Under the pieces are notes generated by a model. The model searched no databases. It saw only the letters and a list, made by a program, of their open reading frames with translations, and was not told the origin of the DNA. Below, piece after piece: positions 8,529-47,800 of a stretch of 64,000 nt of DNA. Position numbers and translations under genes: made by a program. This DNA comes from Eledone cirrhosa (Eukaryota): NCBI GenBank assembly GCA_964016885.1, contig OZ024753.1, positions 46,128,001 to 46,192,000 on the forward strand, given 5' to 3'. How positions within the stretch are numbered: the stretch's first letter is position 1; the number at the start of each line of letters is the position of its first letter.

Positions 8529-8900
8529 ATAATATAAGATCAAAAGATGGTTAAAGGAGTTCCATATATTTTATTATGCGCATTTCAAAAACAAACATCA
8601 TCAAGCAATAATATTTGTGTTTTCATCAGATAAAACAGGAGAATATGTTGATTTAAAACTGCACTATCAACAAGTGTTTTTTAGCCTTCATATCATGTTC
8701 TCCTGTTTTATCTGATGAAAACACAAATATTATTGCTTGATGATGTTTGTTTTTGAAATGCGCATAATAAAATATATGGAACTCCTTTAACCATCTTTTG
8801 ATCTTATATTATGCATACTCCAGTCCCACAAACTGTAGAGTGCTTCTTATCCGATATCTGCATTGCTTTATTGTACTACAATAAAACTCACCTCCTACAT
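8529..8900 (+). mobile_element. Fold-back HHR element family A, copy 1
   Basis: 115-bp inverted arms at 8529-8643 and 8698-8812, then a unique 3' tail ending cctcctac. (TA)n on both sides. Near-identical to copies at 35538 and 58586. Confidence 0.9.
8706..8772 (+). ncRNA. Minimal type I hammerhead ribozyme (mirror copy on - strand at 8569-8635)
   Basis: ttttat-CTGATGA-stem II (acaaatattattg/tgatgatgtttgt, G-U rich)-GAAA-tgcgca (palindromic stem III)-TA-ataaaa. Predicted cleavage after 8766. Confidence 0.85.
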
Positions 8901-9019
8901 TATATATATATATATGTGTGTGTGTGTGTGTCTGTGTATGTAAATATATATGTATTAATATATATGTATTTTTTCACCCAGGTAAGAAGAACGACGAAGT
9001 CCCTGACCTCATTGGCTTG

Positions 9020-9200
9020 CTGTATCATTGGACCAAGGAAACAATGTGACCTTTAGTCATTCCAATTGCTAATACTATCTCCCTGTCACAACTCCTGGCT
9101 GGTGAAAGGAGCAGCGTGAAAGAGAGTGTTTGTCGAAGGGCGCTAAGCATCGTCCAACCCGAGAATCGAACTCCCAACCTTTCCAGCTTTACTTTATCCG
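9020..9200 (-). mobile_element. Degraded tRNA-derived SINE fragment
   Basis: Minus-strand B-box-like gggagttcgattctcggg near 9160-9177. Confidence 0.35.
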
Positions 9201-10408
9201 ATATTCTCAACTACTATTAATAGTGATCATCTATTACTTTGTTGATTTGCGTTTGGACAACTACATTTCAAACTTTGCGTTGATATTATATAATTGTAAT
9301 TTTTGTTTTTGGAGGGGGGTATATATATATATGTATATATATATATATTTATATATATATGTATATATATATGTATTTATATATATATATACACACACAC
9401 ACAAAAATACAATTATATAATATCAACGCAAAGTTTGAAATGTAGTTGTCCAAACGCAAATCACACCCACTTATTTATACATACATATATATATATATGT
9501 GTGTGTATGTATGTATATATGTATATAAACGCATACATATATGATTTCATTCCCTTATTTCACCTAAGGTATAGATATTTCCCATTTATCAATGGACTGT
9601 ATTTGATCTCCATGGAATTATGGTTATAACTCGTCACAGAAGATCTGAATTTAAAGGAGACTTTAAAATCTCAAGACATTTCAGGAATATCAACAAGATC
9701 GTACAAAGTCTAAGGAATAATCTGTTTGTTTTTTCTATTTTATATCTATATTTTTTACAAATCAAGGTATATTTAAGCCGACATGATTTTAGTGGGTAGT
9801 GATTTGGGGCCAATGGCCAATGACACACCAGATGACGTCACATCGGTGTTTTCAATCGATCAGTTTCAGTGACAGGCTCAGAGAAGGAAGATATAATTCA
9901 TAGAACTAATCTCATAAATATGTATGTGTGTGTGTGTGTGTGTGTGTGTGTGTGTGTGTGTGTGTGTGTGTGTGTGTGTGTGTGTGTGTGTGTGTGTGTG
10001 TGTGAAGCGACGGAGTGTAATTTGTGTGCTGATATACGAAGGTCTACATATGAATATGAGTTGTTGTTATAAACTTCAGAATCATTCTAACATATATCAG
10101 CCTGACACACACACATATATATATATATATATATATAATATATAGATATATAATATATATATATAATATATATATATAATATATATATATAATATATATA
10201 TATATATATATATATAATATATATATATAATATATATATATAATATATATATATAATATATATATATATATATATATATAAATATATATATATATATATA
10301 TATATATAATATATATATATATATATAAAATATATATATATATATAATATATATATAATATATATATAATATATATATATATATATATATATATATATAT
10401 ATATATAT

Positions 10409-10800
10409 TATTTATTAAAATAACAGATTAAAGTTTAAGCAAAGAAATCGTTGCTTTCACCCTTAACGGGATCTTCTGAAACTAAAAAAATCAATCTGTG
10501 AACACAGAAGTAAATATTTCGAAAAACGTTGCAACCGAAGGAAAACAGGTAGACGATACTTTGGTTCGTGAAGACGTTCCCTGGCAAAGAACGGAAAAAA
10601 ACGAAGATAATACGTCATTCACAGATTGATTTTTTTTTTTAGTTTCAGAAGATCCCGTTAAGGGCGAAAGCAGCGATTCTTTGCTTAAACTTTAATCTAT
10701 TATTTTAATAAATATTTGCTCTATGGTTCTCATATATTTGATATATATTTATCCTTATTGAGCCCTCTTTGGATTTTACTCTTCACATTTATTATTATTA
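10409..10800 (+). mobile_element. Fold-back element family B with CAGAAGA-core HHR-like motif
   Basis: ~95-bp inverted arms at 10409-10502 and 10618-10715 around a 115-bp spacer. TA tracts on both sides. A third fragment lies at 10978-11017. Confidence 0.8.
10641..10691 (+). ncRNA. Variant hammerhead motif (mirror on - strand at 10432-10483)
   Basis: agttt-CAGAAGA-t-ccc gttaa ggg-c-GAAA-gca...tgc-TT-aaact. All three stems pair but the core has A instead of U4. Confidence 0.6.
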
Positions 10801-10865
10801 CTATATACATATATATATATATATATATATATATATATATATATATATATATATATATATATATA

Positions 10866-10918
10866 ATTAGCCGTCGAAACGGCTTGAGCTCAGCTGTCGG
10901 GGTCTTACTGGTTCCTAT
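10866..10918 (+). mobile_element. Family E fragment in TA tract
   Basis: Identical by eye to 36206-36259, including the same end point (ggttcctat). Confidence 0.85.
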
Positions 10919-45320: not shown

Positions 45321-45608
45321 CACAAAAGACTACGTTGAATAATGAAGTCATATTTTCTCTGAACATATATAAAAGATGAGAGGCCTACGACGACTAGAAA
45401 GCTACTCATCAGCGTGGAGCTGTGGCTAAAGAACAACAACAACATGCATGCTGACGTGCACTCAATGATAAATATACATACACATGGATATGTAATCCAA
45501 CACAAATACAAACACACCTACAGCAACACACATTGGATAAAATACACAACATAAAACCATCTAAACATTTTTATATATATATATATATATATATATATAT
45601 ATATATAT

Positions 45609-46032
45609 AATTAAAAGTTTAACAAGGTTCAATGAATTCATCAATGAATAAAGTTTCACAATAGATTAGAAGCACTCTACAGTGGGGTTTTCTGGAGTTA
45701 TTAATATTAGTTCAAAATATTAATAAATATAGACATTCATGTGATCAAATATATTTTATTATACATATTTCAGAGGTACTGAGCTATTTCAACAGTACGT
45801 CCTCATCAGATCAAATAAGTTGATGCCTGACATACCTTGACTATGTTGATGGTTATAATTTAGTCATGGCAGTCATGACTAAATTATAATTTAGACTGCC
45901 ATGACTAAATTATAACCATCAACATATTCAAGGTGTGTCAGGTATCAACTTATTTTATCTGATGAGGACGTACTGTTGAAATATATTTGATCACATGAAT
46001 GTCTATATTTATTAATATTTTGAAGTAATGTT
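45609..46032 (-). mobile_element. Fold-back HHR element family D
   Basis: Long arm on - strand with 3' end at ~45609 in a TA tract. Inverted arm ~45900-46030. Scrambled palindromic centre 45856-45916. Confidence 0.85.
45752..45817 (-). ncRNA. Minimal type I hammerhead ribozyme
   Basis: Minus strand: tatttgat-CTGATGA-ggac gtactg ttgaaatagct cagtac ctct-GAAA-tatgta-TA-ataaaata. Confidence 0.8.
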
Positions 46033-46055
46033 ATATATATATATATGATATATAT

Positions 46056-46161
46056 ACATGGTCTCCCAAAAATAGTATACATACTTTGATTACCTGTACG
46101 GGCAATATTTATTAGAATGAATTCTGTTGAAGTGTGTATACATTTTTGGGACAACCTGTAT
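46056..46161. mobile_element. Tc1/mariner-type MITE
   Basis: ~31-bp imperfect TIRs (tacatggtctcccaaaaatagtatacatactt / aagtgtgtatacatttttgggacaacctgta) with TA at both ends. Confidence 0.7.
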
Positions 46162-46762
46162 ATTTGGGTGAGTGTATATGTGTGTGTTTGTGTGTATATG
46201 TACATTTGTATGTGTGTGTATATATATATATATATATATATTGTGTGTGTATATATATATATACACGCACAGAATCACAAGCACACACACATACAGACAT
46301 ATAGTGACAGAGAGAACATGCATATACAACCACACACCTTGTGAAGCTCCTGGTGACTGTTGTAAGAACAGACATCAGGTGGAAAAGGATTTATTTTAAC
46401 ATTGAAATAACCGTTAATCCTATTGTTATTGGCAAAACCTGACTAAATCAAGGGAAGTAAACGGAACAAAGAGAGTTAGAGAGGAAGAAACAGAACCTCA
46501 TTTCCAACAAAAGACTGGAGAAGAAGTTTAGTTTAAGAAAAGAAAGGATGAAGGAAGAAAGAAAAAAAGGAAGTAAGAGAGGAGGGTAGGAGATGAGATG
46601 AGAAAAAATATAGGAAAATGGAAGATATGTAAGGAATTAAAACTCCCAAATCGTGTATTTACATGTGTTTATATGTAGGTGTGTATACATGTACGTATAC
46701 GTATACACATATATGTATATTATATATATATATATATATATATATATATATATATATATATA

Positions 46763-47800
46763 TAAATGTAAGTATGCATGTATACGTACATACATATATG
46801 TATACAGACGTACAGTAGCATGCACATATATATATATATATACATATATACATACATATGCATACAGGTACACATACATATATGCACGTATCAGTTTAGC
46901 GGCGCTAACGTCGCTTTGTTCGTTTGTAAACAAACTGAACAGCCTGAATTTATGCCATACGGTGTTAAGGCAACCACGTCACCTTTTTGTTCAACACTGA
47001 CACAGGAACGATGTACTAGTTTCAAGCTTGTTAGCTATCATCAGCACCGTTTACCCATCTGCCAGATAGTTGAACGTTCGGAAGTATATACTTTCCTTAT
47101 GAAAGTTAACGGCTGAGCAGCCTAATTTGCATATTGAGTGAGTTAAATCGGTCAGGCATACCGAAAACGATAAATTGAAACAAAATGAAAACGAAATTTC
47201 ATTTCTCACTCTTAGTATGGCACTTACTTAAATGTAAGTATGCATGTATACGTACATACATATATGTATACAGACGTACAGTAGCATGCACATATATATA
47301 TATATATACATATATACATACATATGCATACAGGTACACATACATATATGCACGTATCAGTTTAGCGGCGCTAACGTCGCTTTGTTCGTTTGTAAACAAA
47401 CTGAACAGCCTGAATTTATGCCATACGGTGTTAAGGCAACCACGTCACCTTTTTGTTCAACACTGACACAGGAACGATGTACTAGTTTCACATCGTTCCT
47501 GTGTCAGTGTTGAACAAAAAGGTGACGTGGTTGCCTTAACACCGTATGGCATAAATTCAGGCTGTTCAGTTTGTTTACAAACGAACAAAGCGACGTTAGC
47601 GCCGCTAAACTGATACGTGCATATATGTATGTGTACCTGTATGCATATGTATGTATATATGTATATATATATATATATGTGCATGCTACTGTACGTCTGT
47701 ATACATATATGTATGTACGTATACATGCATACTTACATTTAAGTAAGTGCCATACTAAGAGTGAGAAATGAAATTTCGTTTTCATTTTGTTTCAATTTAT
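46763..47800. mobile_element. Family G: 466-bp partial tandem plus 311-bp perfect inversion (pLTR/retrozyme-like)
   Basis: 46763-47024 is repeated at 47229-47490 (period 466). 47170-47480 is the reverse complement of 47490-47800 with a 9-nt loop. (TA)n on both sides. Confidence 0.93.
47007..47051 (-). ncRNA. Canonical minimal type I hammerhead ribozyme
   Basis: Minus strand: aacggtg-CTGATGA-t agct aaca agct t-GAAA-ctag-TA-catcgtt. Palindromic CTAG stem III. Predicted cleavage between 47014 and 47013. Confidence 0.9.

Follow-up and report, generated by a model that had tools for sequence, protein, structure and literature searches.

Penelope-like elements (PLEs) encode reverse transcriptases (RTs) that form the sister group of telomerase. 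In the portions of the literature available to us, their insertions are described as combining an inverted truncated copy with a one-sided tail (PMC8557442; PMC3846280), a tail that has been ascribed to endonuclease (EN)-mediated resolution (Craig 2021, PMC8557442). In PAc, of the Poseidon clade, RT starts at two sites on the RNA, and the tail is what lies between them (Frangieh 2024, PMC11167929). The same source reports that the hammerhead is dispensable in vitro, predicts that the protein is a dimer, infers that protein binding needs RNA reaching into the tail region, and cites an earlier finding that EN recognition of plasmid DNA depended on the Penelope tail. A CxCX5C linker is a feature of the Hydra clade (Craig 2021, PMC8557442), and a 3′ hairpin with an essential bulge is known from long and short interspersed nuclear elements (LINEs and SINEs; eel UnaL2, PMC1636434). 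These same portions leave unexplained how an internal start site is chosen and why only one end carries a tail. Here we describe a bulged, covarying helix in the tails of PLE-derived fold-back insertions from a 64,000-nt window of the Eledone cirrhosa genome (contig OZ024753.1, 46,128,001-46,192,000; positions below are relative to the window).

Hammerheads, tails, fold-backs and non-autonomous derivatives of pseudo-long terminal repeats (pLTRs) are already known. The motif itself is real, conserved across phyla and apparently undescribed. No description was found in the literature searched or in the texts cited here, though subscription papers, Repbase notes, figures, the PAc sequence file or preprint supplements could hold one; its characteristic words are also absent from the available supplements of PMC11167929 (7,325 text characters) and PMC3846280, an absence that says little.

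Results

The motif has the consensus RCUC-P2-loop-P2′-UH-GAGY-NCU, in which P1 is a 4-bp helix (RCUC/GAGY) with a 2-nt bulge on its 3′ side, NCU is unpaired, and P2 is a second covarying helix between the P1 arms, closed by a free loop. An initial annotation of this DNA had listed eight sites with a short stem ahead of a microsatellite. All eight strings occur where it placed them and on the same strands, and the 4-bp stem is real in seven, as one part of the larger bulged structure. On the forward strand the motif lies in family A at 8817..8844 (ACTC/GAGT, bulge TA, P2 of 4 bp), in family B at 10718..10766 (GCTC/GAGC, bulge TT, 36-nt interior), in family C at 18921..18943 (the shortest interior, 10 nt, with a weak P2), in the single-copy family F at 19073..19101, where the first position is unpaired (A.C), and, as R1, in a 615-bp repeat unit at 24116..24144 (P2 of 6 bp; seven copies, 20426 to 24144). 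On the reverse strand it lies in family D at 45671..45698 (bulge TA, P2 of 3 bp) and in family E at 36103..36129. The eighth site, in family G (47731..47751, forward strand), belongs to a different PLE-like fold-back family and forms a simple 6-bp hairpin: it lacks both the 2-nt bulge and GAG, the tail-less end of this family is reached 11 nt into the supposed motif, and a covariance model of the motif does not match it. Of the stem variants said to covary, actc/gagt and gctc/gagc stand, and the actt/aagt of site G is dropped.

A strict pattern, written post hoc once the structure was known, matches 10 sites in the window against 0.26 in shuffles. It adds several motifs that had escaped the initial annotation, namely two further copies of A (35949..35976, and 58934..58961, which differs only in the loop; both forward), one of E (30225..30251, reverse) and a second motif, R2, in each 615-bp unit (for example 23607..23711, forward; P2 of 7 bp, 92-nt interior; six copies from 20532). 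The model also matches a decayed family E motif at 5096..5130 on the reverse strand (E 0.062). The looser original pattern is weak by itself (33 matches versus 19.6 ± 4.2 in shuffles of the array-collapsed window) and is enriched 25-80 nt before a microsatellite (12 versus 2.6); neither count was attained in any of 100 shuffles.

The evidence for P2 comes from interiors that had no role in the choice of the eight original sites. Counted over the first three positions inside the P1 arms, 20 of their 24 cells pair in a single register, the one with a 2-nt 3′ bulge, whereas the seven other registers give only 4-12 paired cells. None of 20000 shuffles attained this pairing, even when the best of the eight registers was taken, and 19 of 21 cells remain paired without site G. 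Across 12 family-level representatives, 43 of the 48 cells at four variable positions are paired, compared with 32.9 in column shuffles (0/20000). The first P1 pair is A-U or G-C (A.C in 2/12), the first P2 pair is C-G or U-A in all 12, the second is A-U or G-U, and the third is G-C, C-G or A-U. Alignment A1 is 95.8% paired, with two pairs changed on both sides, against 12-56% in slid controls. When folded in isolation, 8 of 11 window copies adopt P1, bulge and P2 as their best structure, and P1 is kept within a 130-nt context in B, C, R1 and R2. Sequence-read variants inside the motif fall in loops only (3/3 among the variants listed); we do not count them as support.

The motif is tightly placed with respect to one insertion end. 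This second, tail-less end was read from inverted arms and solo copies, with TA microhomology blurring it by 1-2 nt. It lies 4 nt before P1 in all three copies of A, 2 and 3 nt before it in two copies of B, and 5 nt before it in two window copies of E, while the right end of the 615-bp array falls 3 nt before the expected start of the next R2. For D the distance is 7 nt by script and 3-4 by eye, and for C it is 11 nt by the strict script and 7 by eye with one mismatch allowed; no tail-less copy was seen for F or R1. Overall, the tail-less end is 2-7 nt before P1 in A, B, C (by eye), D, E and R2, across loops of 10-92 nt. In sequence data, family E turns into (TA)n at 36135 in 3443 reads of X24, 81 contigs of X1 and three contigs of X5, the last being another organism, with minor ends at 36144 and 36149.

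From the end of each listed site to the next microsatellite there are 56 nt (A), 42 (B), 46 (C), 34 (F), 68 (array), 45 (E), 61 (D) and 46 (G). The 40-75 nt originally proposed thus fits seven of the eight sites (42-68 nt) and fails for F. A tie to this 3′ junction is loose (34-68 nt), and the close link is instead to the tail-less end. Since P1 closes the loop, both end distances hold at any loop length. The idea of a cis element tied to the ends of PLE copies gains from the covariation, the fixed geometry and the presence of the motif in autonomous PLEs, each of which the checks proposed with the initial annotation required, with the correction that the fixed distance is the upstream one.

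That presence was seen by eye in the consensus sequences of PMC8557442 File S7, where three of six published Hydra-clade elements carry the full motif. Hydra-2_Amil has it 43 nt and Hydra-2_Ajap 38 nt after the hammerhead; Hydra-1_Ajap, whose consensus ends 46 nt after the hammerhead, has two full motifs at the element start, from base 3, upstream of the ATG; and the match in Hydra-1_Crog is a near one. In a control with six of the sixteen possible 3′ nine-mers, these turned up three times in 212 Hydra lines, always within full motifs, and three times in 6367 Naiad and Chlamys lines, where none has P1 and P2, although line breaks may hide matches.

We also scanned public contigs. Searching metagenomes for the motif ahead of (TA)n yielded at least 113 loci and at least 89 distinct matches, most of them due to chance; the covariance model, run on 100 of these loci, reached a best E of 0.001, a rough value biased by the selecting pattern. 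Several loci (L191, L195, L201 and L206) have half or all of a hammerhead 47-49 nt upstream of the motif, and L207 is a fold-back that ends 6 nt before P1. A cluster of 14 members, among the matches listed, was set aside: in it, ACTC/GAGT forms stem I of a complete hammerhead whose cleavage site is the TA. This hammerhead family (L122, L129, L132, L140 and ten more) runs for about 59 nt beyond its cleavage site and ends in (TA)n, and no separate motif was found in its 14 loci.

A second scan queried only a hammerhead and the 3′ half of the motif, without asking for the 5′ arm or P2. Among prokaryote assemblies it gave nine matches, three bacterial and six on animal-type contigs of one assembly. 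These six loci (L356-L359, L361 and L362) are animal-type DNA in which PLEs are nested within (TA)n, and are host contamination of the bacterial assembly under which they are filed; they represent three families, maybe from a single host. All six have the unasked 5′ arm and a P2 of 3-7 bp, 40-56 nt after the hammerhead, compared with a P2 of 0-1 in the eight bacterial or viral matches (3 + 5), none exceeding 1. Two of three further hammerhead families in these loci, not selected by the pattern, also carry the motif, with tail-less copies ending 6 and about 3 nt short of it, and one of these two lies behind an ORF that has GIY-YIG and the CxCX5C linker; the remaining family lacks the motif and has a hammerhead like that of G. 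Counting L207, L358 and three L362 families, the tail-less end is 3-6 nt before P1 in five families of other organisms. ORFs (open reading frames) upstream of the hammerhead and motif end in a GIY-YIG-like domain with CxCX5C (L356, L361/L362), for which the Pfam GIY-YIG model gave E 0.003, below the cut-off, in one of three. Two viral scans, whose chance matches we used as controls, gave no strict motifs in 120 loci and no completed motifs in another 120, and none of the five matches of a third viral scan had a real hammerhead stem I. The masked window had no DNA match to the Hydra loci of the public contigs.

The elements that carry the motif are fold-back fragments of PLEs in (TA)n. Self-comparison resolves their layout as (TA)n, inverted arm, fold, sense arm, one-sided stretch and (TA)n; in family A (8528..8900, forward) the motif and tail follow the sense arm. 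Families A, B, C, D, E and G each have an inverted 5′-truncated copy, with the tail confined to one end, and for E this arrangement is seen in sequencing reads too. A hammerhead lies 31-61 nt upstream of the motif in four families. Those of A (8712..8766, forward; cleavage site 50 nt before the motif), C (18816..18861, forward) and D (45760..45809, reverse, 3′ coordinate approximate) are minimal type I with canonical cores; that of D lies about 61 nt before the motif and was missed by a stricter scan. Family B has a hammerhead-like fold with the variant core CAGAAGA (10646..10686, forward), 31 nt before the motif. No hammerhead was found in the window copies of E, in F, or on either strand of the 615-bp array. 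The families had been thought otherwise unrelated, but A, C and D align over the upstream 130 nt (z 4.3-9.0, 0/200 shuffles), so these families share ancestry. Insertion in (TA)n, a feature of the Hydra clade, is seen in the carriers with the exception of F, which ends at (GT)n. At 35690-35785, the fold of the second A copy has expanded to 22-bp repeats of alternating orientation, as if template switching had recurred at the junction. The centre of the E fold was considered as a hammerhead stem III and dropped; other E copies differ at that position.

The 615-bp tandem array (20109..24212, forward) consists of units that are 100% identical, lack a hammerhead and contain two full motifs each; it looks like a mobile unit assembled from tail cassettes. 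Each unit also has two partial motifs, near 20186-20219 and nested in the R2 loop.

Family G (46764-47799) has a 466-bp partial tandem, an inverted arm, a hammerhead of another type at 47044 on the reverse strand and a 59-nt tail. A perfect 6-bp hairpin holds its tail-less end in the loop, about 250 nt beyond the hammerhead; family G is probably a member of another PLE clade with its own signal.

Other features of the window

The window is AT-rich and crowded with (TA)n and related microsatellites, and no clear gene was found in it. Ten ORFs from the window had no Pfam match, a tRNA scan gave nothing relevant, and the best 150 of 424 Rfam matches (E ≤ 5) were all below the gathering threshold, mostly microRNA models on palindromes or microsatellites. 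Weak GIY-YIG-like remnants adjoin microsatellites at 11269-11523 and 16223-16357 (both reverse; tblastn E 0.013-0.05); they are unattached to the repeats and are possibly old pieces of PLE ORFs. A 29-bp minisatellite of 44 copies (43639-44909) precedes a reading frame containing YADD (44958-45329, reverse), perhaps a LINE RT remnant, which lacks a Pfam match. Inverted repeats of about 60 bp face each other over a long (TA)n at 19781-20094 and contain CTGAT..GAAA, which is not a proper hammerhead; a facing inverted pair at 9243-9463 resembles this structure. Other repeats are a tRNA-like, internally inverted repeat in two copies (2973-3232 and 53066-53281; 78% identical), in which ARAGORN finds no tRNA, and a SINE-like pair (13729-13890 and 40373-40533; 83% identical), perhaps akin to an octopus SINE.

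Discussion

We propose that the motif is an RNA site that positions the PLE protein on its RNA, a function that we consider probable, with some reserve. It would be a conserved structured site in the tail of Hydra-clade PLEs and their non-coding derivatives, at which the RT-endonuclease protein would bind the unpaired NCU together with the RCUC/GAGY helix and its 2-nt bulge. The bound protein could begin cDNA synthesis 2-7 nt upstream of P1 and so generate the tail-less end, while a second, looser start 30-68 nt downstream would give the tailed end. Two cDNAs primed from both sides of a (TA)n cut and joined head to head would then account for the fold-back insertions. Hydra elements would, by analogy, follow the tail rule of PAc.

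Several observations weigh against this proposal. The in vitro RT-start data come from the Poseidon clade, where the tail is 30-40 nt long compared with about 65-100 nt here. Three of the four P1 pairs are invariant, so P1 is supported by one covarying pair only; relatedness among the instances inflates the shuffle tests, and a strand test is uninformative (3 G.U versus 2 A.C cells). In a 130-nt context the probability of P1 is below 0.12 in A, D, E and F, and enforcing it costs 1-3 kcal/mol; the protein would therefore have to select P1 in these families. Enrichment among metagenome clusters is weak (6/62 versus 2.3 expected, reached in 7/300 shuffles, among the matches listed), and three of the six positive clusters are one family by eye. 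No motif was seen in the consensus sequences of Hydra-1_Amil, listed as incomplete, and Hydra-1_Obim, listed as complete, which end 47 and 36 nt after the hammerhead. Finally, no RT/GIY-YIG ORF was found joined to a repeat in the window; the carriers are thus PLE derivatives, not full elements, and the window families are only putatively of the Hydra clade.

The tight offset at the tail-less end is typical of a nuclease, which raises the main alternative, that the motif is read as DNA (a duplex, a cruciform or a single-stranded cDNA hairpin) by the GIY-YIG endonuclease, cutting 2-7 nt upstream. The tail-less end would then be a cleavage site that resolves an intermediate or homes new copies into old ones. 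This would agree with the tail requirement for recognition of plasmid DNA cited in the available text of PMC11167929, with the role of EN-mediated resolution favoured in PMC8557442, and with a near-palindrome, AGYRCT, in the 3′ half of the motif in most families. Against it, the palindrome is broken in B and R1 (AGCCCT), the arms are 9-92 nt apart with compensatory changes, which is incompatible with a duplex site, and both ends of the PAc tail matched RT starts on an RNA template (PMC11167929); we regard reading as DNA as rather unlikely. It is less likely again that the motif is an RNA element with another job, such as translation start, splicing, export or control of hammerhead folding, and lies near the ends through a compact 5′ leader. 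The two motifs of Hydra-1_Ajap are just upstream of the ATG, and ACTC/GAGT recurs in stem III or stem I of many Hydra hammerheads, which would allow cross-pairing. Yet the motif is kept in non-coding families and in the hammerhead-less array, and A, C and D retain it despite quite different stem III sequences. There is no shared splice signal (YAG arises only from TA-bulge forms, and B and R1 lack GT), and by eye no reading frame is common to the families. Variable spacing and the lack of a common frame or splice signal, again judged by eye, led us to reject splice-site, coding and promoter readings.

We consider it quite improbable that the motif is a coreless hammerhead relic, consisting of stem I and a UH cleavage dinucleotide and functionless by descent, or a chance match. 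The 14-member cluster described above does match through its hammerhead stem I and TA cleavage site, Penelope-1_SK has the same ACTC/GAGT stem I, and the bulges TA, TT and TC are the exact UH set. However, the loops lack CUGANGA and GAAA and an intact hammerhead stands 31-61 nt upstream. Neutral carry-over is disfavoured because families from cnidarians, echinoderms and the window show covarying helix pairs while their flanks and loops cannot be aligned with one another. The two sets of 120 viral control loci gave no strict hit; chance is largely refuted, and a lack of function is unlikely. One may speculate that the motif derives from a duplicated hammerhead, given its UH-like bulge and the frequency of ACTC/GAGT helices among Hydra hammerheads.

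A bolder version of positioning on RNA, about which we are doubtful, is that one helix serves as a two-sided ruler for a dimeric RT, whose subunits would start 2-7 nt upstream and 30-70 nt downstream, and that the motif is sufficient in cis. If so, it would alone explain the PLE tail and the fold-back insertions; RNAs with the motif and no hammerhead, such as that of the 615-bp array, would be mobilised, and any RNA tagged with it could be written into (TA)n. More generally, a structure of about 25 nt with defined pairs and a 2-7 nt offset makes the choice of start site addressable by spacing and compensatory mutations. As a marker, the motif could assign non-coding fold-back repeats to the Hydra clade and fix the ends of consensus sequences.

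Comparison with known systems

The comparisons below draw on the available text of the cited papers. The motif itself is not a hammerhead, with neither CUGANGA nor GAAA in its loops. Non-LTR retrozymes resemble the window families in their host elements, as non-autonomous pLTR derivatives and in forming tandem arrays, whereas the motif has no catalytic core and the 615-bp array falls outside the retrozyme definition because its tandem units lack a hammerhead. With the Hydra clade (PMC8557442) the window families share (TA)n targets, a hammerhead in the pLTR and inverted truncated copies; that work describes protein features and hammerheads and, in its available text, not the motif, and the window families are non-coding fragments.

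The 3′ stem-loop of UnaL2 (PMC1636434) is likewise a short bulged hairpin common to autonomous and non-autonomous elements, and such sharing, together with covariation, is what would be expected of an RT-recognition site and is seen for the motif. The UnaL2 hairpin is required for retrotransposition, whereas the role proposed for the motif is a prediction. Copying of UnaL2 starts downstream, at the RNA 3′ end, so that the hairpin is always copied, whereas here, with a different RT class, one end lies upstream of the motif and omits it.

The closest parallel is the PAc tail (PMC11167929), which is also an optional extension at one end, downstream of the hammerhead, bounded by two ends and inserted into AT-rich targets. 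It is 30-40 nt long, lies inside the ORF and has an AC-rich stem-loop at one start, and its available description reports no cross-family structure, whereas the window tails are about 65-100 nt long and non-coding, and carry a covarying bulged helix just inside their upstream end.

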